A DNA stretch of 64,000 nt. Origin: Escherichia coli (lineage in GTDB: Bacteria; Pseudomonadota; Gammaproteobacteria; Enterobacterales; Enterobacteriaceae). The stretch is taken from assembly GCF_024700885.2 (NCBI RefSeq), contig NZ_CP117016.1; one strand, 5' to 3'. Below the pieces are notes generated by a model. The model did no database searches and was not told the origin of the DNA. It was given only the letters and a program-made list of their open reading frames with translations. This document shows, in pieces, positions 1 to 15,067 of this stretch. Both the position numbers and the translations under genes were made by a program. Every line of letters begins with the position of its first letter. The first letter of the stretch is position 1.

Positions 1-37
1 ATAATTAACACCGCAAAAAGTGCCAAAAATCGCAAAA

Positions 38-104
38 TGACTACACCAGTGACTACACCGTTCGGTGCACTGTATGAAACAACGTGGAACAAATAGACAC
101 AAGA
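38..104. repeat. Left-end repeat block: tandem gtgactacacc x2 followed by 10-bp phased AACAA repeats; near-identical block at 15068..15144
   Basis: tgactacaccagtgactacaccg at 38..60 is identical to 15068..15090; AACAA at 78, 88, 98. Confidence 0.6.
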
Positions 105-322
105 AATATACAGGCGGATCATCTTTCCAGGGGGAAGCACACCAATTCATGAGGGGCGTTAATGTCGATATGGGGATCCCCACCTACCGGAATTTTTTTC
201 CGGTTAAACGTTAATCAGGCTGGTGGGCTTTACCTGTTCGGTAGGTGTTATGATTATCGTAATACCTTTCCCCCAATGGGGTAAAAGCATCAACCGTAAC
301 GAAAGTCGTTATGGTTGCCACT

Positions 323-463
323 GATACCCCAAATTTGGGTATCACGAGTAAGCCCCAAAATCTGGGTGTTACTCTTACTACCCAAACTACGGGTAGTTTC
401 CGTAGTTTCATGGTCGAGTTGCAGATCTGCAACTCCCCCATTAACCACAGGCGAATTTCCGCC
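323..463. repeat. Cluster of inverted repeats (five or more hairpin-forming palindromes), function unknown
   Basis: gataccccaaatttgggtatc (323..343); ctacccaaactacgggtag (378..396); aaactacgg-gtagttt-ccgtagttt (384..408); perfect 20-bp palindrome gagttgcagatctgcaactc (415..434); ggcgaatttccgcc (450..463). Confidence 0.45.
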
Positions 464-689
464 TTCGGTCATTCCTTAATCATCTGCGTAATCATAATGA
501 TTATTCAGCAAGCGCAATTTTGCGCTTTGCTTAAAGTTCAGCGAGTTACCGCGCCGACTTCCTCAAATTGAGGTTTCCGAAAATATCAGCGGGTTAGCGA
601 TTAAGCTGACCATTAATTAAACTGCGAAAATGTCGTAGTTGTGAGGGGTGTAGCCAACCCATTTTTGGGCCGTCGGGAATATCAACCAG

Positions 690-971
690 TTACCGCCGCA
701 ACCGCTCCGGCTTCTTCCAGTGGTACGTTATTTTCTCCTTCTCCCGATACATCTCCACGCGGCGACGGTAGGCCAGCAACTCAAGAACTCTGGTTCGTAT
801 GTTGCGCATATCCACGCCATTAAGTTCTATACCATCACGGCGCATCACCTCAGCAACAACACGCGCATAGTTTTCGGCTGTCACGCTGTCCGGCTGCGTG
901 GCCTGTTCGTCAGCCTGCTGGCTGATTCCGGCAACGCGGCGGATTAATCCCGTTATTTCGGCTTCTGTCAT
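690..971 (-). CDS. Hypothetical protein, last gene of packaging operon
   Basis: 93-aa ORF starting 14 bp downstream of the terminase large subunit stop on the same strand. Confidence 0.5.
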   Translation of the reverse strand: MTEAEITGLIRRVAGISQQADEQATQPDSVTAENYARVVAEVMRRDGIELNGVDMRNIRTRVLELLAYRRRVEMYREKEKITYHWKKPERLRR

Positions 972-984
972 GCTGCTGACCTCA

Positions 985-2646
985 TTACACCCCGCTAAAT
1001 TCTTCCAGTTTCTGGCGGTGGCTGTCGCTTATATCAAAAGCAAAATCCTCATGCTCTGCCTGGAATGTACCAAACGCCATCAGCGCCGCCACGCTCGGGT
1101 CTATCTTGTTCGGTGATTTTTTCTTGTTCGGCTTGATATTGGCGTTCGCGTCACTCTGCATCACGACGTTACTCATCGACCAGGACAACACCGGATCGCC
1201 ACGATGCACAATCACCCTGCGGTTAACAAAAACTTCGAACGATTTCGCCGCCGGACTGAATCTGAGGTAGGTTTGCGGGAACGGCTCCACCTCAAAACCT
1301 GCCCCCTGTAATTGCGTTCTGAGATGCGTGGCGTTCCACGTATCAAAGCCCACCAGCCTGATATTAAATTTCTCCGCGTCCTGCATGATGTCATCTCTGA
1401 TCCGGTCGTAATCAATGCAGTCGCCAGGCGTTGTGCGTATCCAGCCTGCTTTAGCCCACTGACGATAGATGGCGCGGTTTTTATTGGCGGGGTTCTGTAG
1501 CTGAAATTCCGGCAGATAGTGACGGGAAACCAGCATAATGGTTTTACCGACCGGAAAGGCATAGCACACGCTGGAAATATCGCTGGTTGATGATAAGTCC
1601 AGCCCCGCGTAACACTCCTGGCCGTGTAAATCTTCCTCCGTGAACGTTCCGGCACACTCAGCCCATGCGCCGTTACCCATCCACGGGGTAGCCCCCTGGC
1701 ACCAGATATTAAATCGCTTTGTCATCATCTCCACCCACTGCGACGGAATACCCCGCGCTTTCTGGATGGTTGAGGCCAGTTTTTCACGATCGACGGAAAC
1801 ATCAATATTAGGGTTCGCCTTTATCCACATCGCCGGATCATCAACCTCGTTTTCGTCGTCCAGTTCGTAAATCAGTACAAAAATTGAATCGTTAACCTCT
1901 TCGCCGTCCAGGATCTGGCAGCAATAATCATAGTGCTGCTTACAGGCTGAAACGACGTTGCTGCCTGATGTGGTAATGGCAAATAACAGCCCTTCGGGAC
2001 GTGCGCCCATCCCCAGCTCAAGCGCGGAATAAACGCCGTTATCGGGGTGCAAGTGGTATTCGTCCACGATGGAAAGGCTGGGGTTTGTTCCCTCGATGGT
2101 TGCCGCTTTTGCTGCCAGCGGCTTTAACAGGCTGTTGCTTTTCGGGTGTATCACCTTATGCGCCTGAATATTCACCCGCCTGCGTAACGGTCGGGATAAA
2201 AGGCACATCTGACGCGCATCATCAAAGACGATCCGCGCCTGGTCACGGCTCACCGCTGCGGTGTAGATATCCTGCTGACCGTTCTCCATAATCAGAAACC
2301 AGTTAGCCAGAATCGCGGCGGTCGTGGATTTCGCATTTTTGCGCGGCACTTCGATAAAGGCGCTCGTGTATTTGCGCCGTCCGGTGGCCTTAACCTTAAA
2401 GCCGAGGATGCACGCAAAGGCGAACTGCTGCCACGGCTCCAGCTCAATGGGTCTGCCACGCATCGGTCCTTTTACGTGCGGGCACACCCTGGAAAAGGCA
2501 ATAAACCGCTCCACAACCTCACGATCGAACGTGTAAAGGGGGCTTTTAAGGTCCGAAAAGTACCGTTTAACGGCCTGTTTCAGCCGTTTACAGGCCGGAA
2601 TTTTGCCCGTTTTTACGTCTTCTGCGTACTTATTCCAGGCGGTCAA
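985..2646 (-). CDS. terL: Phage terminase large subunit
   Basis: 553-aa ORF with an N-terminal ATPase region and C-terminal nuclease-like region typical of Terminase_1 family; overlaps terS stop. Confidence 0.9.
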   Translation of the reverse strand: MTAWNKYAEDVKTGKIPACKRLKQAVKRYFSDLKSPLYTFDREVVERFIAFSRVCPHVKGPMRGRPIELEPWQQFAFACILGFKVKATGRRKYTSAFIEVPRKNAKSTTAAILANWFLIMENGQQDIYTAAVSRDQARIVFDDARQMCLLSRPLRRRVNIQAHKVIHPKSNSLLKPLAAKAATIEGTNPSLSIVDEYHLHPDNGVYSALELGMGARPEGLLFAITTSGSNVVSACKQHYDYCCQILDGEEVNDSIFVLIYELDDENEVDDPAMWIKANPNIDVSVDREKLASTIQKARGIPSQWVEMMTKRFNIWCQGATPWMGNGAWAECAGTFTEEDLHGQECYAGLDLSSTSDISSVCYAFPVGKTIMLVSRHYLPEFQLQNPANKNRAIYRQWAKAGWIRTTPGDCIDYDRIRDDIMQDAEKFNIRLVGFDTWNATHLRTQLQGAGFEVEPFPQTYLRFSPAAKSFEVFVNRRVIVHRGDPVLSWSMSNVVMQSDANANIKPNKKKSPNKIDPSVAALMAFGTFQAEHEDFAFDISDSHRQKLEEFSGV

Positions 2647-2986
2647 GCTCGTCCTCTTCTTCTGTTTCCGGTGGGTTTTTACGGCGGCTTATCGGGTCAA
2701 AACCGAGCAAGGAGGCCATTTTTATCATCACCCTTTCAGCGTCTGATTTCGCGCTTAATGCGGGGTTTCTGCTCTCGCCGCCCTGACTGTTAACAATGCT
2801 GAACCCGCGCGCCGCAAGGTCTGCGACGGCTTTCCGGTAAATGGAGTAGTTGACACAATACAGTTCCAGATTGCTCCAGTCGGCGGGGGTCAGGTCTCCC
2901 CGTTCCGCAAGCTGCCGCGATTTTTCCCGCCACTGCTTCACGGCGATGTCATCCAGGTAGGCGGGGGCTTTCGGTGGTCTTGCCAT
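2630..2986 (-). CDS. terS: Phage terminase small subunit (P27-like)
   Basis: 118-aa ORF immediately upstream of and overlapping terL; resembles P27-family small terminases with an acidic C-terminus. Confidence 0.7.
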   Translation of the reverse strand: MARPPKAPAYLDDIAVKQWREKSRQLAERGDLTPADWSNLELYCVNYSIYRKAVADLAARGFSIVNSQGGESRNPALSAKSDAERVMIKMASLLGFDPISRRKNPPETEEEDELDRLE

Positions 2987-3274
2987 GCTTATTTTTCGTC
3001 AGATTATTTTTCAAAAAATTCCCGTGCATAAAAATTTGAGGAGGCGTTCGGTGCCCGGCGGGGTCGGGTTTGTCCTGAAAACGCCCCCCACCCCGTCATA
3101 CAGCCTCATCAGCGATTGCGGAAACATTCCATAACCTCGCGGTCACGGTCGGTTAATCGCTTCGCTGTGATGCGTTCTGCGCGTCCTGACGCTTTATCTT
3201 TATGCCCTGTTTCCTGTGTCTTCCATGCGTCACGCTGCCTTATAAGTCCACGGATAAGGCGGTTTTGTTCCCGC
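2987..3274. other. Candidate cos/packaging site region between HNH gene and terS
   Basis: 288-bp non-coding gap in an HNH-cos-terS-terL arrangement (as in HK97-like cos phages); GC-rich segment cggtgcccggcggggtcggg...ccccccaccccgtc. Confidence 0.3.
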
Positions 3275-3715
3275 TCATTCATCAGCGTCATACATCCAGT
3301 TATTGCGGTTAGCGGCCCGTTCTTCCTCTTCACGAAATCCACCTGCGGCACGCTTGCTTTTTGTTGCCGGATCAAGCCATTTCGTTTTCTGGTTATGACA
3401 CGCCTGGCACAATGGTTGATGGTTCCATTCGGGCCAGAAGAGAACATCATCACCGCCATTAATCGGGATAATGTGATCCACCACCACGGCGGGCGTATAT
3501 ATCCCCTTCTCAAGGCATCGCACGCATAACGGGTTTTTACTCAGATACATGGCGCGGTATTTGTCCCACTGTCTGGAATATCCACGCGCGCGGCGGTGTC
3601 CTCGTCTGGCATCCTCTGCACGCCATGCCGCCCGCCTGTGCTCCTCACACTTGCCGGATTTAACGCGCCTGTTACAGCCTGGTTCTGTGCATCGTCTTAA
3701 TGGTTGCCACGGCAT
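3275..3715 (-). CDS. HNH endonuclease (terminase-associated)
   Basis: 146-aa ORF with Cys pairs and the DHIIP...N..LC..CH..K HNH motif, positioned upstream of terS. Confidence 0.85.
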   Translation of the reverse strand: MPWQPLRRCTEPGCNRRVKSGKCEEHRRAAWRAEDARRGHRRARGYSRQWDKYRAMYLSKNPLCVRCLEKGIYTPAVVVDHIIPINGGDDVLFWPEWNHQPLCQACHNQKTKWLDPATKSKRAAGGFREEEERAANRNNWMYDADE

Positions 3716-4011
3716 CAGTACACCCCCACATCACGGTAAGCCGTCCAGAGTGCGCCTATCGTCATGGGTACGCGTGTTTTTGCGTTATCCGCGACAATCT
3801 GGCGATTTTCATACAGGTGAGCGATAAACATCATGCAGCCAATCTTTATGGCTGGCGTGAACTCCAGCCCGTCATCAAAGCGCCTGCCTATGTGTATCTG
3901 GCACGCCTCAAGCGATGCGGCAATGTATCCGCTGATTAACTGGTCTTCATCGTCGCCATCGATGCGGCAATGGAGTTTCACTTCTTCCAGGGTGATAAGT
4001 TCTTCTGTCAT
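3715..4011 (-). CDS. Head-tail connector protein (gp6-like)
   Basis: 98-aa ORF, MTEELITLEEVK... resembles phage gp6-like head-tail connector family; translationally coupled to neighbours. Confidence 0.65.
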   Translation of the reverse strand: MTEELITLEEVKLHCRIDGDDEDQLISGYIAASLEACQIHIGRRFDDGLEFTPAIKIGCMMFIAHLYENRQIVADNAKTRVPMTIGALWTAYRDVGVY

Positions 4012-4346
4012 TTTTCCGCGCCCTCACGACAAAGAATTTCAAGGCGTGTCCTGGCGGCATCCGGCAGCGGCTGCCCGATGATATTCAGTACACGCCCCGC
4101 CAGCGGCCCCGTACTGACCTTTATCCGGCTGGTGGCGTTGATGTCCTTCCGGTACCGTATCCAGATCCTTACGGTACCAATCGCCAGCTCTGCGCCCGAT
4201 GAAATGGCCTCCTTGCTGCTGACCATGTTCACGCTTGCCCAGAGTGTGTGACCGTCCTCCCACGTTTCGAGTATTTCGCCGGTTATATCCCTGGTCTGTT
4301 TCAGGGTCTGAATCGTTATCCTGTCACGCAGTCGCCCTATGTTCAT
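4008..4346 (-). CDS. Head-tail adaptor / head closure protein
   Basis: ORF 4008..4388; probable start MNIGRLRDRITIQ at 4346, directly after portal stop, typical N-terminus of head-tail joining proteins. Confidence 0.65.
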   Translation of the reverse strand: MNIGRLRDRITIQTLKQTRDITGEILETWEDGHTLWASVNMVSSKEAISSGAELAIGTVRIWIRYRKDINATSRIKVSTGPLAGRVLNIIGQPLPDAARTRLEILCREGAEK

Positions 4347-5554
4347 TCCGGTTTTTCTCCCTCGCTGATTTTTACTTCCTGTTTCCATGCCTGGCTGAAC
4401 TCATCACCACCATCACGCGGTGACAGACCTTCACGTTCGCGGGCTTCGTTCGGACACATAACGCCGGATTTGATGCCGCGCTCATAGGTGGCAAAGCGTT
4501 CGCCAGGTGTGGCCCGTAACAGGTCCGCGCTGTCAAACTCCACCTGATACCGGATACCAGGTACAGGCGAGGCCACCAGCAGGGCGTTTTTTATCTGCTG
4601 CTCAAAGTTCGCCAGCCACGGGCGCATCGTCATGGTGAGAAATGCGCGGCTTGCCTCGCTGAAATTGCTGTAGGTGCTGTTGCTGTATTCCTGCAAAAAA
4701 ATCGGCGAGACGTTGAACATTCGGGCGATGTCTTCAATGGTGAAGCGACGGGAGGCCAGCCATTCAGCATCCTGATTACTCATGCCCAGCTGCTGATAGC
4801 TCATACCCCCTTCAAGGATGGGCGTTTTTCCGGCGTTTCTGGCCCCTTTGTAGCGTTCCAGTGCGGCTAATGCCTGTTTGCCCTTCACGCCGTCCAGCCA
4901 TTCGCCTGACGTGATAACCCCTGCCGCCATCATGCCATCACGCATCACGCTCGCGCCGTGGCGTTGTTGGGCCAGCCCAAGCCCCAGCGATTCGCGGCAG
5001 ATGGTTACAGGTGAGCACCCCATAAAGCCGTCATCCGTGGAGTAACGAAGGTGAAGTACTTCCCACGGTAAATAGTTGCGGGTGTTTCCGGTGTAGGCGT
5101 CAGTGATGCAGTAGCGCCAGTTGTGTTCGCCTGTCTGCTCCACGTTCACCGACTGCGGCGGGTAAGGATGTAAAGCCGCCGGAAAACCATCACGCCCCCA
5201 CTGAATCACCGCATAAGCATTACCGTTTAACAGGCAGTGGCGGATCATCATTCGCTTAAACTGGTAGGGGGTTTGCCATGCGTTCGGGCGCTCGTTGAGG
5301 ATGTGATCGACCGGATGAGAATCAAGCCACTCGCGGGCCTCCTTCCCCTTCTCATTGCGTACCAGGTACAGGTAACACGGCATGGTAGCCACCGCCTCAG
5401 AGATGACCGTCACGGCGTTCATGACGGCGGGCAGTGATTCCGCTGTCCCCGATGATACGTACTCACCCGCCCCCGTGTTCGATGTGCCAGCCAGCGCCAT
5501 AAATTCATCCAGCGTCATGCTGCGCTGCTCTTTTTTTCTTCTGAAAGGCCACAT
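4343..5554 (-). CDS. Portal protein (HK97 family)
   Basis: 403-aa ORF sitting between the prohead protease and adaptor genes, resembling HK97-family portal proteins. Confidence 0.85.
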   Translation of the reverse strand: MWPFRRKKEQRSMTLDEFMALAGTSNTGAGEYVSSGTAESLPAVMNAVTVISEAVATMPCYLYLVRNEKGKEAREWLDSHPVDHILNERPNAWQTPYQFKRMMIRHCLLNGNAYAVIQWGRDGFPAALHPYPPQSVNVEQTGEHNWRYCITDAYTGNTRNYLPWEVLHLRYSTDDGFMGCSPVTICRESLGLGLAQQRHGASVMRDGMMAAGVITSGEWLDGVKGKQALAALERYKGARNAGKTPILEGGMSYQQLGMSNQDAEWLASRRFTIEDIARMFNVSPIFLQEYSNSTYSNFSEASRAFLTMTMRPWLANFEQQIKNALLVASPVPGIRYQVEFDSADLLRATPGERFATYERGIKSGVMCPNEAREREGLSPRDGGDEFSQAWKQEVKISEGEKPE

Positions 5555-5555
5555 A

Positions 5556-6128
5556 TCACACCCCCGCTAAATCCACCCACCAGCGGCGATTATCCGCACG
5601 CGGCATTTTTTCGGGGTGCTGCTCATACAGGGAACGGCGGGCCAGCTCCACGCCGGAATCGGGGTAAGCCGGTACCGATGTAACGGTAATTTCGTACAGT
5701 TCCGCCACCAGCACGGTGCGCACGCATGGATCTGTTGTGGTATCCCATACATCCTTACGGGAGCGAAAGCCAAAGCTCATCCCCGAGATGTCCCCACGCT
5801 TAACCAGTTCGATAACGTCGCGCCCTGTACTGGTATCCGGTGGGGTCAGTTCAAAGCGTAACCCTGTTTCGTCCTCTTCCAGTTTCAGCGTGCCGGAACG
5901 GGTGCGCCCCAGTAACATGCTGTGGTCATGCTCATACAGGCCGCGAACGTCATTACCCGCCGCAAGCCACTCAGTAAACGCCCCCCGCTGGAATTTTTCG
6001 TAAAACTCCCCCCATAGCAGTTCTGAAAGCTTATCCCAGCGAACAACGTAGCCCGTCAGCGTACCGGCTCCGCTGGTAGTGATTTCCGATGACCGGATTT
6101 CCATACTCTTCATAATTTTTTCACCCAT
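5556..6128 (-). CDS. Prohead maturation protease (HK97 family)
   Basis: 190-aa ORF immediately downstream of the capsid gene, resembling HK97 prohead protease. Confidence 0.85.
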   Translation of the reverse strand: MGEKIMKSMEIRSSEITTSGAGTLTGYVVRWDKLSELLWGEFYEKFQRGAFTEWLAAGNDVRGLYEHDHSMLLGRTRSGTLKLEEDETGLRFELTPPDTSTGRDVIELVKRGDISGMSFGFRSRKDVWDTTTDPCVRTVLVAELYEITVTSVPAYPDSGVELARRSLYEQHPEKMPRADNRRWWVDLAGV

Positions 6129-6167
6129 AAAACACTAAAGGGGCTTTTAAGCCCCTTCTGTATGCTG

Positions 6168-7325
6168 TTAATCGTCGTCCTGTGGCAGTTCCAGAATCTT
6201 GATCGCGTTCGAATCCACCACGCCACCGCCTAAATATTTCTGCGTGAAAATTTTGATGAAGCCCGGCTCTGTGAGGTTGTCCGGTCTGGTGCGAACACCT
6301 GTTTCGTGATCAACAATGTAGTAACCGCGTTTGAAGTCACCCAGGGCAATAACGTTATCCGGCATAAACTCCAGATATTCGACCGGAAGGCCCAGTAACG
6401 TATCAGGATCACCCGCCTGTAAACGGTCGCGCCAGATGTAATCACCGTTCGCGTTCTTCACCTTCTGAAGTTTTGCCGCCGTCGTGGAGTTAACCACCCA
6501 GACCGCGTTTTTGCGGTATTTTTTACGTAATGCAAATTTCAGGTCGATCAGCGGGTCCGCAGATGTCCACGCCAGAGATTCGGAAGGTTTAATTACCTGC
6601 AACGTACCAAAATCACGCTCTTTGTCGTTCTTCTCTGCACGGGGTACGGATAAAAAGCCTTTTGCTTTTTTGTCACCGTCGCCCACAACCAGATCGCTTT
6701 CTTCGGTTTCCGTGAAGTTGTCGCCAATCTCGCCCGTCAGCCATGAAAGGATGTCCACATCGGAAAAATCCACGATTTCCTGCGTGGTGCGCGGGTACGC
6801 ATAGACCGGATACAGCTTAATGCTCACCTCGTTAATCTGCGGGGTGCTGGTCTGTTCGCGTGCCTTACCCTCTTCACCGTGGTTAACGGTCGCACCGCCA
6901 GCGGAAACAAGCTGCTTAAACTCGTTGCTGCTGATTTTCTTCACGGTACAGATGCGGCGCATGGTGGATTCATCCGTCAGCATTCGCATGATTTCGGTGT
7001 TCAGTTCGGGGATAACGGTATAACCACCATCAGCGGGAACGCCTGTACTTAATGCGCGGGTTTCACCTGTCAGAATGTAGTGACGTAGTTCGGCTGGGTC
7101 AGTGGTCTGACTGCTTTTACCTGGCTTGCTGCGCTCTTCGTCTGCAATGGCTTCAAGGCGGGAAATGTCTTTATCGAGGGATTCAGCTTTAGCGCGTAAT
7201 TCGTCAAATTTTGCGCCCTCAGCATCGTTAAGACTGCGGTTTTCTTTTTCCGCGTTCTCCAGCATGTCGCGCATCTGATTTTTAATGGCGGTTTTCTGCT
7301 GGCGTAATTCGATTATTCTCGGCAT
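6168..7325 (-). CDS. Major capsid protein (HK97 fold) with N-terminal delta/scaffold domain
   Basis: 385-aa ORF with a coiled-coil-rich N-terminus followed by HK97-like capsid region. Confidence 0.85.
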   Translation of the reverse strand: MPRIIELRQQKTAIKNQMRDMLENAEKENRSLNDAEGAKFDELRAKAESLDKDISRLEAIADEERSKPGKSSQTTDPAELRHYILTGETRALSTGVPADGGYTVIPELNTEIMRMLTDESTMRRICTVKKISSNEFKQLVSAGGATVNHGEEGKAREQTSTPQINEVSIKLYPVYAYPRTTQEIVDFSDVDILSWLTGEIGDNFTETEESDLVVGDGDKKAKGFLSVPRAEKNDKERDFGTLQVIKPSESLAWTSADPLIDLKFALRKKYRKNAVWVVNSTTAAKLQKVKNANGDYIWRDRLQAGDPDTLLGLPVEYLEFMPDNVIALGDFKRGYYIVDHETGVRTRPDNLTEPGFIKIFTQKYLGGGVVDSNAIKILELPQDDD

Positions 7326-7584
7326 AAAAAAAGTCCTGGGGTTAAGTAAGGAACTCCAGGACGCGGCAAAAACTCAACCGTTTTTCATAAGGAAATCAGC
7401 AATCGCACCGATCGTTTTCCCGCCTGGTAATGAATATTGGCGAGAACATTAACAGGCGGAAAAGTGGCCCCAGCGTCCTGGCACCACGGGCGAGAATAAT
7501 CATGATTCAGTTCGGGTAAAATATGCCGATCCGCTCAGTGAACAACGTGGAACAACCACGAACAAATAATTTACAAAACATGAC
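7326..7584 (-). promoter_or_regulatory. Upstream region of capsid/packaging operon containing 10-bp phased AACAA repeats (7541..7565)
   Basis: 259-bp non-coding gap between an upstream terminator and the capsid start; gtgaacaacgtggaacaaccacgaacaa. Confidence 0.45.
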
Positions 7585-7605
7585 AAAAAGCCGGATTGCT
7601 CCGGC
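7585..7605 (-). terminator. Rho-independent terminator ending the replication/early operon
   Basis: Minus-strand hairpin gccggagcaatccggc followed by TTTTT, immediately after the stop of the 93-aa ORF. Confidence 0.6.
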
Positions 7606-7612
7606 TGTGTGA

Positions 7613-7894
7613 TTATCTGTCCTGGTAATTTCGCCATATTTCATTACCAGCACCATCCATACCCATTTCGGCATAAGTGCGATCGACCGCCTTTTTCAGG
7701 TCTCCGTAGTTATCCGGCGGCTCCGGTGGCCTCTGTGCCTTCCTGGAACATTCCAGCCGTCGCATCGTGATGTGATGCCGTTCCTTGTCTGTCTCCACCA
7801 GTTGCATGACTTCACCCCATCGCGCCGACGCTCTCCGGTAAAAGCCTTTCGCCTCCAGTTCTTCCGCTATGCGGTCATGTACCATCGTCCCCAC
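7613..7894 (-). CDS. Hypothetical protein
   Basis: 93-aa ORF in operon with the SSB gene. Confidence 0.5.
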   Translation of the reverse strand: MGTMVHDRIAEELEAKGFYRRASARWGEVMQLVETDKERHHITMRRLECSRKAQRPPEPPDNYGDLKKAVDRTYAEMGMDGAGNEIWRNYQDR

Positions 7895-7897
7895 CCC

Positions 7898-8308
7898 TCA
7901 GAACGGAATATCATCACCGTAAGGGTCATCGCCTCCCGCTGGTGGCTGATTACCCTGTGTGCCTGTGGTCTTGCGTCGGCTCCCACCAGGACGTGCCGCA
8001 CGGGCACTGATTACGCTGTCTGCAATAACCTGATAACCCTGCCGCGTTTCCCCGTTCTGTCCGGTCCACTGGCTGACCTGCATCGTGCCGGATACGCTGG
8101 CAACGTCGCCTTTTTGATGTTTAGCCAGGAAGTCGGCCTGCTTACCAAATGCGATGACCGATAGCCATAACGTCGCCTGTCCATCCTGTGCCTGGCTGCA
8201 TGGCAGCGATACCGCCATACGCGCCAGCGTCATCGGTGTACCCTTGCTGGTCTGTTTTACCTGCGGGTCGTCCACCAGCCGCCCGTAAGCTGCTATCTGT
8301 GCTGTCAT
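7898..8308 (-). CDS. ssb: Single-stranded DNA-binding protein (SSB-like)
   Basis: 136-aa ORF with OB-fold-like core, Gly/Pro-rich linker and C-terminal DDIPF tail as in bacterial SSB. Confidence 0.75.
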   Translation of the reverse strand: MTAQIAAYGRLVDDPQVKQTSKGTPMTLARMAVSLPCSQAQDGQATLWLSVIAFGKQADFLAKHQKGDVASVSGTMQVSQWTGQNGETRQGYQVIADSVISARAARPGGSRRKTTGTQGNQPPAGGDDPYGDDIPF

Positions 8309-8583
8309 GATTCCACCTCTCCGGTTTTAACGTTGATGGTTGTTACCTGTTCCGCTTCGGCAATCTCCCGCTCTGTCAGCGTGGCAAAATTTGCCGCCGT
8401 CGTGGTCATGAATGCGCTTATCAGTTTGGGATGTGCTTTCGCGTATCCTTCCCCCGCGTGGCGGTCTATCGTTCTGATTGCCACCTTTAAAGCGTGCTCT
8501 GTCATGTCTAACGCGCGATATTTCGGTTCTGTTCTGTCTCTGCGTTTTTTGAGTGATTTATTAAATTTCCCTGAAGTGTGCAT
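8305..8583 (-). CDS. Hypothetical protein
   Basis: 92-aa ORF between the iteron origin and the SSB gene, overlapping the SSB start. Confidence 0.5.
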   Translation of the reverse strand: MHTSGKFNKSLKKRRDRTEPKYRALDMTEHALKVAIRTIDRHAGEGYAKAHPKLISAFMTTTAANFATLTEREIAEAEQVTTINVKTGEVES

Positions 8584-8629
8584 ATTTATTTTTACCCCCT
8601 CGTTTAAAAAGTTTTGAGTTGTGCCTCCC

Positions 8630-8860
8630 CTTGTCTACCTTATCTACCTTAGTGGCCCTCATACCAGTAATGGCGCGGCTTTCAGCGGGGTAGAGTGCTT
8701 TTATCCACTATCTACCCCGTGTCTACCTCCCTGTCTGATTCAGGTAAAATCAGGTAGAGAGGGTAGATAGTGGGTAGACAGTAAAAAAAGGTTATCTACC
8801 TAACTTAATGCACTGAATTAAATGTATTTTTCTTTACTCAGGTAGACAGGGTAGACAGCA
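8630..8860. repeat. Iteron array, putative island replication origin
   Basis: Ten or more copies of T(A/G)TCTACC in both orientations (e.g. tgtctacct, tatctacct, caggtagagagggtagatagtgggtagacag, caggtagacagggtagacag) immediately 3' of the primase gene. Confidence 0.7.
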
Positions 8861-8871
8861 ATTACAAAAAA

Positions 8872-10626
8872 TTATAAAAACGCGTCGCACTCGTCTGTTG
8901 TTATTGCGTTAGTCTGCGTTACTCCCTTAACTTTCCGCGTAATATATTCATGTCCGTAAACTTTCGCGGCTGGCTTCATAGCCTTGCCAAAGTCATTTAC
9001 GTTTAGCGGTTTGCTCCTGCCTGCGTACGCCATAAACGCCAGATAGACGCGGTAAAGGCTGTTTCTGGTCGTGTACTTCACTGAATCGCCACCGCCGCCC
9101 ATCATCAGGCCGCGTGCTTCCTCCAGAAAATTCAGGAACTGGCAAAACTCAATAACCGGATCCGTCTGTTGCTTTATTGCCAGAGCTTCATCACCGTCAC
9201 GCTGTTCCAGTAGTAAAGCCCGTGCCTTCTCAGGGTCGGTAAAGTTCGCCAGCAATCGGCGGATAATGACAGGGATTTCAGCCGCGATCTTTTCCGGTAG
9301 CTCCCTGTCTTTTTCGGCCTCACTGACGATATTGTCGAAACGGAAAATCACGCGACGACGTGCCACACCTCCGGCCCGTTCGGTGAATATCATCGGGTTA
9401 TTGTTGGTCGCCAGCACCACCGCCCTGATTACCGCCGTGAAACGCTTTTCGTATTTCGGGTTAATTTCCACGGGGTCACCGCCCGTGATTTTCTTGATGC
9501 CCGTTCCTTCGCCTGTATATTTCGGCTGGTCAGCCAGGACGATAAGACGACTCCCGACAACCTGCGCACGTCCACCAGCATCATCAAGCGATGTCATTTC
9601 AGCGCTTACCGTGTTCTGTTTCCCTGCCAGAAGGCTGGCTATGTGTGTGAATGTACTTTTACCGCTCCCGCCGTCTCCGGTGGCCTCAATAAACATCTGC
9701 CAGTCGTACCGGTTCGCCATAATCATGTACAGCGCGGCACATATACGCATCATCTTGCGCGGGTCTTTTCCGGCTGCGTGCTCAAGCCATTTATGAAAGT
9801 TTGGCGCGTTATCGCGGATGTTCTCCCCTGGTGCTGGTGGCGTGTACTCAATGCCGTTGTGCGTGGTGATCCAGTTCTCCGGCGTGTGCGGGGAAAATTC
9901 CCCCGTTTTCAGGTCAAGCGCACCATTGGCGAACGGCAACAAATCGCCGGACGGCTCGCCCATTGGTTCGGCAATAACTTTTAACGCTTCCACGGCGTTA
10001 TTGATTACGCGCTTGCTGAAAGTGGCCCTGTGCTCTGAATAGATCGCCACCATTTCGCGGCTAAGTTCCATTGTGCTGACCGGACACCATACCCCGCCGC
10101 GCCATACGTGAACGATTTCACTTTCAGGATGTACGCAAACGCCATCAAAGCGATCGGCAAGCAGTTGCGCGCGCTCACTGTCCGCCATCTGCGAAAGTTG
10201 CGCCTTTTGCTTTACCGGAAGCTCAATGACCAGACCATCAGAAAGATTCTGGCGCTCACGGGCCAGATATTCGCGCCAGTTCTCCACCTTCTGACCGTGC
10301 ATACCATCAGGGTAAAAATTTGCATCCTGTACGCCTGCCGCCGCCAGCTTCTGACCAATCGCCTTTATCATTACTGGCGCAAGATATCCGGCCCTGAATA
10401 TGCGCACGGATTTTCTGCCTTCCGGCACAATTTGCAGCTTATCCAGTTCGGATAACTGCTGCTCCCCAAGCCACACAGGAGGCTCATTATCTCCGGCCAT
10501 ACGCGCGTCATGTTCCTGCCATTGTTTTGCGTGTGACCAGGCATCACTACCCGCAAAAATAATGACTTCTGTTTCTTTGTGTTTTATGCCGCGTGACTGC
10601 TGTTTTACGTTCGGTGCCAGTTTCAT
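8872..10626 (-). CDS. Replication initiator: phage/plasmid primase with D5/P4-type NTPase (helicase) domain
   Basis: 584-aa ORF with Walker A GDGGSGKST and downstream motifs typical of P4-family primase C-terminal domain; followed by iterons. Confidence 0.8.
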   Translation of the reverse strand: MKLAPNVKQQSRGIKHKETEVIIFAGSDAWSHAKQWQEHDARMAGDNEPPVWLGEQQLSELDKLQIVPEGRKSVRIFRAGYLAPVMIKAIGQKLAAAGVQDANFYPDGMHGQKVENWREYLARERQNLSDGLVIELPVKQKAQLSQMADSERAQLLADRFDGVCVHPESEIVHVWRGGVWCPVSTMELSREMVAIYSEHRATFSKRVINNAVEALKVIAEPMGEPSGDLLPFANGALDLKTGEFSPHTPENWITTHNGIEYTPPAPGENIRDNAPNFHKWLEHAAGKDPRKMMRICAALYMIMANRYDWQMFIEATGDGGSGKSTFTHIASLLAGKQNTVSAEMTSLDDAGGRAQVVGSRLIVLADQPKYTGEGTGIKKITGGDPVEINPKYEKRFTAVIRAVVLATNNNPMIFTERAGGVARRRVIFRFDNIVSEAEKDRELPEKIAAEIPVIIRRLLANFTDPEKARALLLEQRDGDEALAIKQQTDPVIEFCQFLNFLEEARGLMMGGGGDSVKYTTRNSLYRVYLAFMAYAGRSKPLNVNDFGKAMKPAAKVYGHEYITRKVKGVTQTNAITTDECDAFL

Positions 10627-10922
10627 TTTTTACCCCTGAATCCGTTAATCATGGTTTTCAGCTTCTGGATGTTTGCCCGTGCCCTGGCGTTGCTGGTGGA
10701 CACGTTATGCGGCGCGGTCTGTACCAGAGAAAAATCACGCCGGAACTGATAAACAGGCATCACGCAATCATATTCGTAACCTTCACGGCGGTAGGTTACG
10801 CGCCGTTCTTCCACGCCCTTAATCATTACCGTGCCGCCGTACTGGTCGCGGTAAATATCGCCGCGCGTAAATTTAGGGTGAGTGTTGCCACTGGCAGTTA
10901 AGCCAGAATATTTAAGTTTCAT
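10623..10922 (-). CDS. Hypothetical small protein (accessory operon gene 7)
   Basis: 99-aa ORF whose stop overlaps the primase start (ATGA). Confidence 0.5.
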   Translation of the reverse strand: MKLKYSGLTASGNTHPKFTRGDIYRDQYGGTVMIKGVEERRVTYRREGYEYDCVMPVYQFRRDFSLVQTAPHNVSTSNARARANIQKLKTMINGFRGKK

Positions 10923-10927
10923 TATTT

Positions 10928-11161
10928 TTATTCTCCGGTGTGCTGTTCTTTATATCTGTCGTGCAATAGATCTATTTCTTGCAGTTCCATTATTACAGGC
11001 TCAAGAAGCGTTATTAATGCCGTGGCAATTCTTGATTTTTGTTTGTCGCGTTCATTGTCGCCAAGTGTTTCAAGCCATATGCGCAATATTTCCAGCATGT
11101 TTTCACTGTGAGAAAGTGCAAGAAATGCGCGGTCTATTGTTTCGTGGTAAATATCACGCAT
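10928..11161 (-). CDS. Hypothetical small protein (accessory operon gene 6)
   Basis: 77-aa ORF, same strand, tightly packed. Confidence 0.45.
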   Translation of the reverse strand: MRDIYHETIDRAFLALSHSENMLEILRIWLETLGDNERDKQKSRIATALITLLEPVIMELQEIDLLHDRYKEQHTGE

Positions 11162-11387
11162 GGCTTACATCCTCAGGAAATTTTCTTCTATAACGCGCCT
11201 CTGCCACATATTCCGCATAATCGGCGGCGATATTCAGTACATCAAGCCCCGTTGATTTATATTCTCTCGTGGAAAGTAAGAAAAAAGCCGCTCTAATAAG
11301 TTCTGGCATTGACGAAAGCGCATCAGCCGCATCATCAGGAACGCCGGAAAATTCCTGTTTCAGGGAATTAAAACGATCATCACGCAT
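11154..11387 (-). CDS. Hypothetical small protein (accessory operon gene 5)
   Basis: 77-aa acidic ORF overlapping its neighbours by 8 bp. Confidence 0.45.
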   Translation of the reverse strand: MRDDRFNSLKQEFSGVPDDAADALSSMPELIRAAFFLLSTREYKSTGLDVLNIAADYAEYVAEARYRRKFPEDVSHA

Positions 11388-11763
11388 GTTTACCCCCCTG
11401 AATGACCTGATAACCGCAACTGGTCAGCAACTCGATAAATTCCGGCAGTGTGCCGAAACAGCAATCATCACGCAGCCGTTCACAGGATACCTCGACGCCG
11501 TTTTCGTAGTGACTCACCATACATCCGGTAAAATGCAGATCATCATCGTGATGGCTCGTTGACGGCTTAATCAGTCGCGCACGTTCCGCCAGTTCCAGCA
11601 ATGCTTCAACGCTTCCGGCAATTGCACCATCCGGCAGGTGATAATTACGCACTATGCGCCCGTTCTCCACATTGACCAGCAACTGCCCGGTAAATTTCTC
11701 ATCAAACTGAATGCTGTTAAGGTCAGAAATTGACAGATTATGCATGGTGCACCTCCTGCACAT
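11380..11763 (-). CDS. Hypothetical protein (accessory operon gene 4)
   Basis: 127-aa ORF; start may be the internal Met at 11745 (MHNLSI...). Confidence 0.5.
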   Translation of the reverse strand: MCRRCTMHNLSISDLNSIQFDEKFTGQLLVNVENGRIVRNYHLPDGAIAGSVEALLELAERARLIKPSTSHHDDDLHFTGCMVSHYENGVEVSCERLRDDCCFGTLPEFIELLTSCGYQVIQGGKHA

Positions 11764-12016
11764 CAGCCATGATAATTTTTCCGGCCTTATCCAGTGCCTG
11801 ATCGGCTTTTAGCTGCACAAATGCTAAATAATGGAAGATGCATTCTGATTCTCTGGCTGCGTGTTTATGCGCCCTGTCAGCAATAACAGAAATATCAATA
11901 AGCGCGTGCATCAGCGTAGTGAGCGCGGCGGCGGCTGCGTCCGGTGTGGTTTTATTGCACATGTACCCCTCCGCATTTTTTTTCGTTAGAAATAAGCGTT
12001 CTTCTTTCCTGTTCAT
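11738..12016 (-). CDS. Hypothetical small protein (accessory operon gene 3)
   Basis: 92-aa ORF; start may be the internal Met at 11962, which would remove most of the overlap with the upstream gene. Confidence 0.45.
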   Translation of the reverse strand: MNRKEERLFLTKKNAEGYMCNKTTPDAAAAALTTLMHALIDISVIADRAHKHAARESECIFHYLAFVQLKADQALDKAGKIIMADVQEVHHA

Positions 12017-12182
12017 CGCTCAGGAATACGCAGACCTCACCGCTAAGGCGTTTAAGTAAGCCGATGATTGCCCCTGATTCGCTGTCGGTCATCATGCCAG
12101 GGTAATCCTCTGCCAGTGCGCAAATAACTTCGATTTGGTGGGCGCGTTCTGCTGCCTGTTGTAGTGTGATTTCCTGGCTCAT
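11952..12182 (-). CDS. Hypothetical small protein (accessory operon gene 2)
   Basis: 76-aa ORF, start overlaps the stop of the upstream gene. Confidence 0.45.
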   Translation of the reverse strand: MSQEITLQQAAERAHQIEVICALAEDYPGMMTDSESGAIIGLLKRLSGEVCVFLSDEQERRTLISNEKKCGGVHVQ

Positions 12183-12379
12183 AAGCCTACCCCCTGACGA
12201 ATACGGGCAGCAAATACCATCACGCAGCCAGCCGGAGATTGCTGGCGTGCTTCCTGTTCGCTGGTGGCCTCAATGGTAATCACGCGCGGTTGTGCCGTGC
12301 TCAGGGCGATAAAACGCCAGATGTATTTATTCAGGTTGTGCGAGTCCCGCCCTTGCGGGTGTGTGGTATGATTTCTCAT
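12179..12379 (-). CDS. Hypothetical small protein, first gene of leftward operon (Cro-like position)
   Basis: 66-aa ORF starting MRNHTT at 12379; the 340-aa ORF in the track is read-through across the regulatory region. Confidence 0.4.
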   Translation of the reverse strand: MRNHTTHPQGRDSHNLNKYIWRFIALSTAQPRVITIEATSEQEARQQSPAGCVMVFAARIRQGVGL

Positions 12380-12476
12380 AGCTACCTCGATACTTTCGCT
12401 ATCGTTGGTGGTTAGAAGCCCGGTTAGTGTTAGCGCACTGCCGGGTTTCGTCGTTTCTGCACCTTGCGCCAACAAG

Positions 12477-12528
12477 GTGTTGAACACCAATTTAAACCCA
12501 GGTGTTAAACACGTCAAGTGTTGAACAC
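12477..12528. promoter_or_regulatory. Three palindromic operators GTGTTnAACAC between divergent promoters
   Basis: gtgttgaacac (12477..12487), gtgttaaacac (12502..12512), gtgttgaacac (12518..12528) in the gap between divergent gene sets. Confidence 0.6.
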
Positions 12529-12578
12529 TTATTTTTTTTCCTGCATACTGCATTTGTTTTTTATGAGGGGTACACCAC

Positions 12579-12758
12579 ATGGCGACAAAAGCGGTAAACG
12601 CAAAATCACAAACCGTTGCGGCAAGGGTTCCGCATGAAGTTATGAACAATGTTGAGGCGGTAAAAATGCCTGGCGAAAGTACGGGGCAATTTGTTACTGC
12701 GGCATTAAAACGAGAAGTTGAATATCGCCAGCGGCGCAAGGCCAAAGAACCAGAGTAA
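12579..12758 (+). CDS. Putative ribbon-helix-helix transcriptional regulator
   Basis: 59-aa ORF (below the track cutoff) with a Shine-Dalgarno-like gagggg upstream; beta-strand/helix/helix pattern typical of Arc/MetJ/CopG family; adjacent to operators. Confidence 0.5.
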   Translation: MATKAVNAKSQTVAARVPHEVMNNVEAVKMPGESTGQFVTAALKREVEYRQRRKAKEPE

Positions 12759-12800
12759 TCACCATCAGCGCCGTGGTGTAAGGTATTACGGCGCATTGCT

Positions 12801-12989
12801 ATGCAGGACAACACAATGACCGATAAAGAATTGACCAAAACATTATCACCGGCACGGAAAAGACGGCGCAGAAAGATAGAGCATGAATCAGAAAGATTCG
12901 CGCCATGTGCTTTTGCCCTTGAGCAATTCCTTAAAGAGTACAGGGAAAAGCGCTCATTGCAGGTATGGCAACGAACTGAACCAGACTGA
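12801..12989 (+). CDS. Hypothetical small basic protein
   Basis: 62-aa ORF downstream of the RHH gene on the same strand, followed by a terminator. Confidence 0.4.
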   Translation: MQDNTMTDKELTKTLSPARKRRRRKIEHESERFAPCAFALEQFLKEYREKRSLQVWQRTEPD

Positions 12990-13083
12990 TTGCATTGCCC
13001 ACCAGCCTGATAACGGCTATCATCCCCGTGCTTATGTTTGGGATCACACACACAAACGGCGCAGCGGGTTATCTGTTCAGAAA

Positions 13084-13113
13084 GGCGGCTCCATTTCGGG
13101 GCCGCTTTTTTTA
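13084..13113 (+). terminator. Rho-independent terminator of rightward regulatory transcript
   Basis: Hairpin gcggctcc-attt-cggggccgc followed by TTTTTTT. Confidence 0.55.
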
Positions 13114-13258
13114 TACCTGAAAAACCCCAATTTTGTTGTTTTTCAGTTTCACCAGGGCGAACGAATCCCCGCCCACGTTCTGGCGTATATTCAATCTTCA
13201 TGGTTATAGCTCTGTGTTCAGATGATTGATGTGTGGCGGCTGCGTGCCGCCAGCGTGA

Positions 13259-13765: not shown

Positions 13766-13812
13766 TCTGTTCGCATATCCAGTATGCGCATACTGAAAAA
13801 ACACGAAAAAAA

Positions 13813-15042: not shown

Positions 15043-15067
15043 GTTTTACCCCCTCTTTACGAAAAAG

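Follow-up and report, generated by a model that had tools for sequence, protein, structure and literature searches.

What could a dense cluster of palindromes do at the edge of an integrated island, in a gap that lies between its last gene and its attachment site? This question is raised by positions 323–463 of a 64,000-nucleotide stretch of Escherichia coli DNA (hereafter, the window), for which the first-pass annotation had reported at least five inverted repeats, including a perfect 20-bp palindrome with a BglII site, downstream of a packaging operon near the left end of an island. Each of these observations was reproduced. Five perfect inverted repeats (stem ≥7, loop ≤10) were counted in 323–463 against 0.08 ± 0.28 in 2,000 dinucleotide shuffles, none of which reached five, and eight were counted in 165–600 against 0.28 expected. 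The densest 141-bp hairpin windows of the 64 kb all fell within 261–421, and RNA folding of 280–480 gave z = −8.3 for the minus strand and −9.0 for the plus strand. The hairpins extend past 323–463, from about 171 to 670, and the end coordinate 463 cuts through a longer hairpin at 444–469 (inner stem 449–464). The cluster forms the conserved central part of a non-coding "end cassette" carried by E. coli phage-inducible chromosomal islands (PICIs), which are phage satellites, and its position and sequence lead us to favour, tentatively, the view that this cassette serves as a structural boundary or insulator behind the final late gene.

The island and its non-coding end

Window 1–15226 was identified as a capsid-forming PICI (cf-PICI) inserted in tqsA, where direct-repeat junctions mark its ends. 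It combines int and replication genes with its own capsid, protease, portal, connector, HNH, TerS and TerL genes, has no tail or lysis genes, measures approximately 15 kb and uses a specific att site, a gene content that was compared with that described for cf-PICIs (bioRxiv 10.1101/2022.09.08.507074). The HNH, TerS and TerL proteins gave Pfam matches, and the gene annotation was taken from FORC_069, which carries an identical island. Transcription runs in one direction on the minus strand of the window, from int through the replication genes and the capsid and packaging genes to orf93; such unidirectional transcription has been reported for Gram-negative PICIs (PMC6092414). The palindrome cluster lies in the 690-bp non-coding gap between attL and the following gene.

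690–971, minus strand: orf93 (93 aa), which closes the late operon and whose 3' end is abutted by the module in most islands

In the excised form, this gap sits between the late operon and attP-int. The order was directly visible in L151, a circular 10.8-kb episome, on which orf93, the module, hairpin X, Chi, attP and int follow one another in a single direction. The product of orf93 matched phrog_1561, an unnamed PHROG (E = 2.9e-56), and no Pfam or NCBIfam family was found for it. It has 1,028 relatives, and the named ones among 120 listed all belong to E. coli or Shigella; a search of one genome per species confirmed none. Its AlphaFold model was poor (pLDDT 65) and gave no fold match better than E = 1.4. 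A tRNA/tmRNA scan of the whole window found none.

The four-hairpin module and the surrounding array

The central part of the cluster was resolved into the following features.

318–440, no strand: four-hairpin module of 123 bp, a discrete cassette with sharp homology boundaries, which occurs alone in unrelated flanks at 92–95% identity
322–344, no strand: hairpin 1, TGATACCC-CAAATTT-GGGTATCA, with an 8-bp stem and a 7-nt loop
328–339: inverted repeat CCCAAATTTGGG
346–374, no strand: hairpin 2, imperfect, with an outer stem (346–351/369–374) and an inner stem (354–357/363–366) given by folding
353–435, no strand: invariant core of 83 bp, with stems, loops and linkers all nearly invariant
377–408, no strand: hairpin 3, in two mutually exclusive forms (377–397 or 384–408), with overlapping alternative repeats at 377–397, 384–399 and 384–408
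416–435, no strand: perfect 20-bp palindrome GAGTTGCAGATCTGCAACTC, which contains AGATCT (BglII) and GATC (Dam site)
444–480, plus strand: hairpin X, with inner stem AGGCG/CGCCT (449–464), outer ACC/GGT (444–469) and the U-rich tail CATTCCTTAATC

Hairpin 3 is built on a 9-nt direct repeat, with GTAGTTTC at 393–400 and 402–409, and deletion of one 9-nt repeat in the L036- and L068-type copies removes its second form. The 20-bp palindrome is unique within the window even when three mismatches are allowed, and no second copy of the palindrome or of its half-sites was found elsewhere in the window. In other copies of the module its centre G is often A, which breaks the perfect symmetry, and in L068 the centre is AATT instead of GATC with the symmetry kept. 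Three CCC-N7-GGGT dyads centred at 333, 360 and 387 are spaced by 27 bp and differ in their outer bases; the longer motif TACCC-N7-GGGTA is exact at 325–341 and 379–395, and with up to one mismatch it occurs four times in the window against 0.94 expected. A lambda-type nut site, defined by a CGCTCTTA-like boxA that precedes a spacer and a short hairpin, all sense-strand and downstream of a promoter, was considered for TGCTCTTAC (TACTCTTAC at 370–378) together with hairpin 3 and judged a coincidence, as both lie on the plus strand, antisense to all island genes, with no promoter upstream. An RfaH ops-like reading of GGCGGTAACTGG was dropped, with 9 of 12 positions matched and a location that is wrong for ops.

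An intrinsic terminator was taken as a GC-rich stem-loop with a U-rich tract directly behind it on the transcribed strand. None of the four module hairpins has a U-tract, and a terminator scan of window 1–689 on both strands flagged nothing, hairpin X included. Hairpin X adjoins the module and is terminator-like in the plus-strand reading, where its tail is weaker than that of copies in other islands, ACCGAGGGCGGAATTCCGCCTTCGGT+TACTTATTGT, which the scan flagged as terminator-like on the operon strand (L151 and L003). Among the module copies, it follows on the plus strand in 25, including the window, and on the operon strand in 23; whichever side it is on, a reading in the terminator direction of hairpin X always passes the module first. 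In the 23 operon-strand copies, homology ends at the hairpin X tail.

The module sits in an array of short palindromes, many of which carry an IHF-consensus tail, and Chi sites are enriched, at 1.9 per kb in the end regions compared with 0.31 per kb in the whole window (approximately 6-fold).

171–204, no strand: leftmost palindromes of the array, TGGGGATCCCCA (171–182) and ACCGGAATTTTTTTCCGGT (186–204)
219–226, plus strand: Chi site GCTGGTGG, approximately 100 bp left of the module
293–313, no strand: hairpin CCGTAACGA-AAG-TCGTTATGG, immediately left of the module
476–508, no strand: repeat unit with the palindrome TAATCATAATGATTA (489–503)
510–548, plus strand: unit of hairpin AAGCGCAATTTTGCGCTT (510–527), spacer and tail GTTCAGCGAGTTA (536–548), the tail being IHF-consensus-like with three mismatches
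561–596, plus strand: unit of hairpin CCTCAAATTGAGG (561–573), spacer TTTCCGAAAA and tail TATCAGCGGGTTA (584–596), one mismatch from WATCAANNNNTTR
658–692, plus strand: unit of hairpin CCCATTTTTGGG (658–669), spacer and TATCAACCAGTTA (680–692), an exact IHF consensus overlapping the stop codon of orf93

Matches to WATCAANNNNTTR follow the hairpins at a distance of 10–11 nt, and lie forward in 71 cases and reverse in only 4, although many of them are orthologous copies of one another. The cf-PICIs of Xenorhabdus show the same IHF-consensus motif 2 nt past the TerL stop, followed by a hairpin. Stems of the unit hairpins are unrelated between units and their complementarity is kept; many array palindromes are perfect through the centre, and their loop-length distribution differed only weakly from the control. 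The hairpin at 293–313 recurs in L067, L069 and L070 with the stem kept and the loop variable, and the palindrome at 489–503 has the orthologues TGGTCATTATGACCA or TGGTCATCATGACCA, a double compensatory change. Two other readings of these units were rejected: terminators on either strand, as the tails are inconsistent, and a XerCD/dif-like site at 484–508, which by eye gave too few XerD-arm matches.

We also considered a small minus-strand protein, MKLRKLPVVWVVRVTPRFWGLL..., for which an ATG at 411–409 is kept in most copies and the 9-nt deletion is in frame. Its ORF, however, runs to 66, 26, 13 or 0 codons across copies, its start codon is lost in L050, no ribosome-binding site precedes it, and its substitutions mix synonymous and non-synonymous changes. 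The earlier impression that the cluster holds no convincing ORF is borne out, and a protein product is scarcely credible.

Distribution, conservation and possible roles

The module was found at 802 places in 705 of 5,426 complete E. coli genomes (approximately 13%), in 63 IMG/VR contigs and in 46 metagenome copies; the latter, collected with a 17-mer, added no new divergent variants and hence no extra covariation. Three PICI types with different packaging genes carry it, namely cf-PICIs, the Rpp type and the protease-capsid-fusion type, and every copy whose surroundings were examined lies in a PICI end region. The palindromes thus persist in related islands, contrary to the lack of conservation that the first-pass annotation had named as a ground for refutation. 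In all three types the cassette is always placed in the gap that separates the final late gene from att or from cargo. The islands are inserted in tqsA, next to clpS, next to phoQ or beside a tRNA-gene fragment, and their integrases are annotated differently. The O157 island L070 has the same flanks and is otherwise similar, with the module absent; published O157 small RNAs (Esr41 and others) were rejected as matches, since they map to other islands. No homologue of the module was detected in 50,697 phage records, in which the palindrome gave only chance-level matches of 20–21 nt, and none was detected in 80 TerL-bearing loci of other genera (TerL 67–82% identical), a covariance-model search included. 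The end region itself is mosaic, with sharp breakpoints, duplications, repeat-to-repeat deletions and a variable number of units. In the literature on PICI cos, IHF and palindromes that was searched, we found no description of the element.

This distribution bears on the suggestion of the first-pass annotation that the cluster might be a recombination or packaging signal, neither part of which was upheld. As a distal attP arm or accessory sequence, the cluster would aid integration or excision, and its location on the att side, near IHF-consensus sites typical of attP arms, is in keeping with this. The att core TGCTGTTAT, however, was located at L001 14957–14965 and window 15218–15226, and the arm repeats GACTACACCAGTGACTACACC at 39–59 and 15069–15089, with neither core nor arm repeat inside 318–469. 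The module lies 360–480 bp from the core here, and in L151 it is set approximately 230 bp beyond the outermost arm repeat; the distance to att is variable, the module accompanies several insertion sites and differently annotated integrases, and L070 does without it. Participation in attachment is thus very unlikely.

A cos or pac signal of the capsid-forming island appears more improbable still. The cluster does lie downstream of terL, it has the palindromic character common among cleavage sites, and flanking Chi sites are sometimes oriented to protect ends that would be cut inside the module, although the window has no inward-facing Chi right of the module. Against this, Rpp-type PICIs carry the same module downstream of rpp and an exact lambda-type cosN upstream of it, where the functional lambda-type cos of these islands has been located (PMC6739421, PMC9026076), and the module is absent from the cf-PICIs of the 80 other species mentioned above. 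The lambda-type cosN GGGCGGCGACCT, which in such sites has cosQ and cosB beside it and precedes the small-terminase or rpp gene, had no match within two mismatches in window 1–9000. A non-coding block conserved across genera occupies the canonical HNH-terS position upstream of terS, at about 3002–3094 of the window, and this block is probably the cos site of cf-PICIs, being the best candidate found from sequence.

Conservation within the module is uneven. Across 44 loci the 83-bp core was 97.2% identical, compared with 83.6% for orf93 and 84.7% for the hairpin-1 segment of the same loci; the IMG/VR loci were chosen by an exact 20-mer, which inflates core identity, and subtraction of these 20 nt leaves approximately 96% (arithmetic on 97.2%). 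Hairpin 1 keeps only its stem, in which both-sided changes replaced C-G with U-A in five sequences and A-U with C-G in one, and its loop varies among CAAATTT, TTTATTT, TGTATTT and AAAATAT. The outer pairs of hairpin 2 are often broken (in 10 and 8 of 26 sequences), and its inner stem and loop are invariant. Altogether, 2 of the 33 pairs of the module changed on both sides, both in hairpin 1 and through few independent events, and the other helices are invariable. Outside the module, a compensatory change was observed between TAATCAT/ATGATTA and TGGTCAT/ATGACCA. In 124 non-redundant hairpins, wobble mismatches showed no strand bias (15 G.T versus 16 A.C), and the folding energies of the plus and minus strands in 20 arrays were mixed and confounded by base composition.

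Could such a cluster arise without a function of its own, as recombination scars and palindromes that are self-generated by template switching and unit duplication, around a module recently spread by recombination? The mosaic structure, the variable unit number, the enriched Chi sites, the dispensability of the module and the close similarity of all known copies suit this explanation. However, the loop of hairpin 1 has diverged as fast as the gene next to it, and the contiguous 83 bp has stayed at 97%; recent spread alone would not put this boundary of constraint in one and the same place in all lineages. Stems are also kept through both-sided changes, and the layout of IHF motif and hairpin recurs in Xenorhabdus. 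We consider absence of function unlikely.

Another explanation treats the module as a functional RNA cargo, either freed from the late transcript at its 3' end or made as a transcript of its own, whose conserved loops would, as a sponge or regulator, target an RNA or protein of the host or helper. PICIs keep accessory genes in the zone that holds the module (PMC6092414), and an Abi gene adjoins it in L068. Its patchy, dispensable occurrence in E. coli-type sequences only would suit cargo, and the 23 copies with an operon-strand hairpin X, at whose tail homology stops, resemble a 3'UTR-derived sRNA. On the other hand, one RNA strand cannot serve both these and the 25 copies with hairpin X on the other side and strand, and the wobble pairs favour neither strand. 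Rfam 15 gave no match at E ≤ 1 in window 1–3000 and only an unrelated, sub-threshold symR-like match in 1–16000; a scan found no promoter-like site in or beside the module, and complementarity to the rest of the island was nowhere above chance. An RNA cargo is accordingly judged rather unlikely.

The near-invariance of the core, loops and linkers included, agrees with a sequence-specific protein-binding array on double-stranded DNA, in which the CCC-N7-GGGT dyads and the 20-bp palindrome would serve as binding sites for a protein of the host, the PICI or the helper phage. Nearby IHF bends might then aid a nucleoprotein complex, for instance in late-operon/int coupling, topology or helper interaction. 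The excess of TACCC-N7-GGGTA matches, the regular 27-bp spacing, the long palindromes symmetric through their centres, the symmetric change from GATC to AATT in L068, the unbiased wobble pairs and the flanking IHF-consensus sites all point in this direction. Yet the integrase, replication and packaging genes differ between module-bearing islands and offer no common candidate partner; L003 has no orf93, and no DNA-binding fold was obtained from the orf93 model. None of these sites recurs at another point of the island, such as a regulatory region. The outer bases are not the same in the three dyads, the G-to-A polymorphism breaks the palindrome in many copies, and hairpin 1 and the unit palindromes swap half-sites while keeping complementarity, which is unusual for protein operators. 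Such an array is conceivable and, on balance, doubtful.

The boundary function that we tentatively prefer would operate mainly at the transcript level. The tandem hairpins would form in single-stranded nucleic acid, chiefly in a transcript crossing the island end, which could be read-through of the late operon or plus-strand read-in from the truncated tqsA. They may hold up or end transcription, hairpin X being the terminator-like element, and block 3' exonucleases, so that the late mRNA would obtain a defined, stable 3' end and the late genes, attP/int and the host flank would be insulated from one another. The IHF-consensus tails, to which IHF would bind, and the enriched Chi sites may be DNA-level companions that probably bend the stretch and make it prone to recombination; the mosaic, cassette-like make-up of the stretch would follow from this. 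The constant place of the cassette in the three PICI types, the single-direction order of L151, the strongly non-random hairpin potential, the stems kept through both-sided changes or, in unrelated units, through complementarity, and the operon-strand hairpin X flagged in L151 and L003 argue for such a boundary. Unbiased wobble pairs fit an element that needs to fold on either strand, the Xenorhabdus layout is similarly placed after the last packaging gene, and dispensability with variable copy number suits an accessory boundary better than an essential cis site. Several observations, however, sit less easily with it: the module hairpins have no U-tract and the scan of 1–689 found no terminator; a hairpin-only barrier leaves the loop and linker conservation of 97%, against 84% in the adjacent gene, unexplained; the missing wobble asymmetry and the centre-perfect palindromes fit DNA-level symmetry equally; and covariation amounts to few independent events, confined within the module to hairpin 1.

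For the core at 353–435 specifically, we suggest as a possibility, to be held with reserve, a sequence-specific element common to the three packaging types, which may act as a late-transcript regulatory RNA or as a binding centre for a host or helper factor. If so, satellites could use it to sense or manipulate the helper, or to couple late transcription to int and excision.

Significance and comparison with known systems

PICIs, and cf-PICIs especially, are under active study as gene-transfer agents and delivery vehicles, and a description of their non-coding ends was not found in the PICI literature searched. The cassette is common, better conserved than the adjacent gene and shared by satellites with quite different packaging. 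It is a candidate for the element that ends the late operon and shields int, attP and the host flank, or alternatively for a regulatory site or RNA, and it may be used as a compact marker for such islands and as a deletion target in synthetic PICI engineering.

The cassette resembles intrinsic terminators, terminator-insulators and stabilising 3'UTR hairpins in its location after the last gene of a one-way unit, its GC-rich stems and the U-rich tail of hairpin X, but its module hairpins have no U-tracts and its sequence conservation is far above what a terminator needs. With the cos sites of lambda-type helpers, Rpp-type PICIs and HNH-dependent HK97-type systems, it shares a non-coding location near terminase genes with IHF-type motifs nearby; it differs from the lambda type in that a cosN-like sequence is missing from the module and its vicinity, and from the HNH-dependent type in lying downstream of terL rather than between hnh and terS. 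Like the P and P' arms of the lambda attP used by a tyrosine integrase, it is next to att and has IHF-consensus motifs, but its distance is too great and not constant, and it occurs independently of the integrase type.

PeSL stem-loop cassettes mediate module shuffling in T4-type phages and carry early promoters. They share with the PICI cassette the repeated stem-loop units at module borders and the tie to mosaicism and cassette exchange; the latter differs in host, element type and sequence, and no promoter is detectable in it. The REP/BIME elements of E. coli form arrays of GC-rich palindromes in transcribed regions between genes where operons end; they are credited with stabilising the mRNA upstream of them and with binding nucleoid proteins, and BIME-1 (RIP/RIB) in particular has the arrangement REP, IHF site, REP. 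The PICI cassette stands apart from them, as it has no evident REP consensus, a stem that differs in each unit and an 83-bp invariant core without a BIME counterpart, and the copies whose surroundings were examined lie in PICIs only rather than dispersed around the chromosome. What it has in common with REP/BIME is the set of short GC-rich palindromes at an operon end, the IHF consensus at a fixed distance and the variable copy number.

The host island and its att sites

Window 1-1000 matches E. coli FORC_069 without a difference, and the annotation of that genome identifies the element: it is a capsid-forming PICI (cf-PICI) of ~15.2 kb located in tqsA and similar to EcCIEDL933 (bioRxiv 10.1101/2022.09.08.507074). 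Apart from two small ORFs, every island gene lies on the minus strand.

Features of the island and of related loci (window coordinates unless another record is named)
1-15226: island genes int, regulators, primase, SSB, PerC, capsid, protease, portal, closure, connector, HNH, TerS (Terminase_4), TerL and a 93-aa ORF (orf93)
15218-15226: right att core TGCTGTTAT; the left copy lies immediately beyond the window start
39-59 and 15069-15089: tandem arm-type repeats GACTACACCAGTGACTACACC
39-59, 15069-15089, 78-112 and 15108-15142: att-flanking repeats; in the circular record NZ_CP148328.1, 10650-10720 and 20-165
416-435: perfect 20-bp palindrome GAGTTGCAGATCTGCAACTC, holding a BglII/Dam site
536-548, 584-596 and 680-692: IHF-like tails
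~3002-3094, minus strand: strongly conserved non-coding hnh-terS block, at the canonical cos position
Xenorhabdus locus L083, 5660-5680, sense strand: motif TAAC...TTGAT, present in 15+ Xenorhabdus loci (L083-L125)

The att core is flanked on both sides by tandem direct repeats GACTACACC(AGT)GACTACACC, with GAACAA/TGTTCG repeats close by, which resemble binding sites of the integrase arm type and the excisionase type. The att-proximal motif AACAACGTGGAACAA(CCACGAACAA) occurs a third time at 7541-7585, in the gap that precedes the capsid operon, and may be a shared regulator-binding site tying att to the late promoter. The SymR antitoxin RNA family matched 12380-12452 on the plus strand, antisense to island genes, at a level below threshold (33 bits against a gathering score of 61, E = 0.005). 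In FORC_069, a lambdoid prophage interrupts ynfG with its integrase end ~11 kb to the left of the island (locus L001, 1-4000, outside the window); it encodes RecE, Gam, Bet, Exo and IntD and could be a helper phage of this PICI.

The palindromic gap and its conserved module

From the positions of the att core, the arm repeats and the last late gene, the palindrome cluster lies within a 690-bp non-coding gap between orf93 (690-971) and attL. The inverted repeats described in the first-pass annotation at 323-463, including the perfect 20-bp palindrome, were confirmed: counting stems of at least 7 and loops of at most 10, five perfect repeats were found vs 0.08 expected, and none of 2,000 dinucleotide shuffles attained five. 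The densest 141-bp windows of the 64 kb were all located here, and 280-480 folded as RNA exceeded the stability of shuffles by 8-9 standard deviations on both strands. The limits assigned to the cluster did not hold, as the palindromes span ~171 to 670 and the proposed end bisects a hairpin at 444-469; short palindromes are arrayed over the entire gap. The statement that it contains no convincing ORF agrees with our search, in which a conserved ORF was ruled out. No known RNA family matched.

Many of these palindromes form a repeating unit of ~48-55 bp, composed of a hairpin (GC-rich stem, A/T centre), a 10-11-nt A/T-rich spacer and a uniformly oriented tail ATCAACNGGTTAG, which fits the IHF consensus WATCAANNNNTTR; the IHF and terminator assignments used here are consensus matches. 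The tail at 680-692 matches exactly and overlaps the orf93 stop codon. Stems differ in each unit with complementarity retained, and orthologous units exhibit double compensatory changes, e.g., TAATCATAATGATTA vs TGGTCATTATGACCA. In Xenorhabdus cf-PICIs (TerL 77% identical), an exact IHF-consensus motif lies 2 nt past the TerL stop, followed by a T-run and hairpin, a placement equal to that at the orf93 stop; downstream of TerL, the sense-strand density of such motifs is 0.39 per kb vs 0.04 per kb elsewhere. This indicates that the motif-plus-hairpin layout predates the module described below.

A BLAST search of 5,426 complete E. coli genomes showed that 318-440, a module of four hairpins, acts as a unit. 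It occurred in 705 of them at 802 places, nearly always with at least 90% identity, though such counts overstate independent events because many copies are orthologous; the flanks were frequently unrelated to those in the window. Further copies were found in 63 IMG/VR contigs, chosen by the exact palindrome, and in metagenomes (46 copies). Carriers were cf-PICIs, Rpp-type PICIs with capsid-like, decoration and rpp genes, and a third PICI type with a protease-capsid fusion, one member of which was deposited as a circular 10.8-kb E. coli "plasmid". This record (NZ_CP148328.1) is an episomal PICI containing int, primase, the protease-capsid fusion, a DUF1441 protein, orf93 and the module, and it shows the attP junction directly. 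In most islands the module adjoins the orf93 3' end, so that 441-651 is additional material in this window. Some islands hold two copies, and an O157 island flanked in the same way has none. No copy was found in 50,697 phage records, nor by BLAST or covariance model in 80 loci from other Enterobacterales and Pasteurellales that contain TerL; in the plasmid collection the carriers were E. coli records only. This species restriction refers to representative genomes and TerL-bearing loci. In one Rpp-type PICI, a gene of the abortive-infection family (L068, 3103-3864) occupies the space separating the module from the island end and runs convergently to the late operon, which marks this stretch as a cargo zone.

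Candidate packaging and recombination signals

The cluster had also been proposed as a packaging signal. The module is absent from relatives in other genera, and in Rpp-type PICIs cosN lies upstream of rpp (PMC6739421; PMC9026076). A lambda-type cos was ruled out for the module, which lies downstream of rpp in Rpp-type PICIs having an exact cosN upstream, and no cosN was found near the module. It is also unlikely to be the cf-PICI cos, because the relatives without it possess a conserved hnh-terS block. This block, GGGGTGGGGG..GACAAAC..CCTCCTCAAATTTTTATGCACGG.AATTTTTTTGAAAATAA, is common to E. coli, Klebsiella, Citrobacter, Proteus and Xenorhabdus cf-PICIs and, judged by sequence, is the strongest candidate for the cf-PICI cos; the two bioRxiv cf-PICI papers searched for "cos" give no position for that site. 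The suggested recombination signal, taken as an att site, was rejected, since the att core and arm repeats lie elsewhere, the distance to att is variable and the integrases are different.

Chi is ~6-fold enriched in PICI end regions, reaching 1.9 per kb in the non-coding ends of related islands, and the whole island is Chi-rich. Both strands together carry 14 copies of Chi GCTGGTGG in the 15.2-kb island (1-15226) vs 6 in the other 48.8 kb (15227-64000). This richness could protect rolling-circle or injected linear DNA against RecBCD, as the island annotation holds no Gam gene. Left of the second module copy in another island (L009, ~4650-4770), three direct repeats ATAACCCGCAA, 20-22 bp apart, have TAACCCGC in common with the unit tails and look like iterons.

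Possible functions and relation to known elements

An alignment of 26 distinct copies revealed two conservation regimes within the module. In hairpin 1 (322-344) the stem is retained, two of its pairs having changed on both sides, and the loop varies freely. In the 83-bp core (353-435; hairpins 2 and 3 and the palindrome), stems, loops and linkers are all nearly invariant. In 44 loci with 83.6% orf93 identity to the window, the core was 97.2% identical (~96% by our own arithmetic when the selecting 20-mer is omitted) and the hairpin-1 segment 84.7%. Hairpin 3 has two mutually exclusive forms on a 9-nt direct repeat, one repeat of which is deleted in some copies; the palindrome centre G is commonly A, and one diverged copy has the centre AATT with symmetry preserved. 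Long palindromes in general tend to be symmetric through the centre. Variation in hairpins 2-4 is too small for covariation to settle their structure. The gap region is a mosaic of breakpoints, duplications and deletions between repeats, as neutral recombination debris might be, but the abrupt constraint shift inside one contiguous block weakens this explanation, which we rate improbable.

Single mismatches in 124 non-redundant hairpins would form G.U pairs on the plus strand in 15 cases vs 16 on the minus, so that no strand is favoured. A scan flagged no promoter-like or terminator-like site in the window's gap; in two other islands it classed hairpin X (GGCGGAATTCCGCCTTCGGT plus a U-rich tail), which follows the module, as a terminator-like element of the operon strand. 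Hairpin X is on the operon strand in 23 copies and on the opposite strand in 25, including the window (444-480), where it would halt read-in from the truncated tqsA. In the circular episome, orf93, an IHF-like motif, a hairpin, the module, hairpin X, Chi, attP and int follow one another in a single direction.

We tentatively favour a structural boundary that ends a one-way late transcription unit, because position, structure-preserving substitutions, lack of strand bias, the two hairpin X placements and dispensability all fit. The hairpins would fold in any transcript crossing the island end and, with hairpin X, would stall or terminate its synthesis and shield the 3' end of the late mRNA; the late genes, attP/int and host flank would thus be insulated from each other. 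IHF-type motifs and Chi would be DNA-level companions, also rendering the stretch recombination-prone. Such a boundary does not explain the near-invariance of the core, and for this reason two alternatives stay serious: a sequence-specific protein-binding array, which is rather unlikely, and a functional RNA carried as cargo, which is more doubtful.

No description of this end element was found in the PICI literature searched. Its nearest analogue in logic is REP/BIME of E. coli, especially BIME-1, which is arranged as REP, IHF site and REP. The PICI hairpins differ in having no common consensus and in being restricted to PICIs, and BIMEs are not known to contain anything comparable to the invariant 83-bp core. 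By analogy, the array would work like REP/BIME and is not a family member; it is best filed as an extragenic palindromic or terminator-insulator element, specific to E. coli phage satellites.
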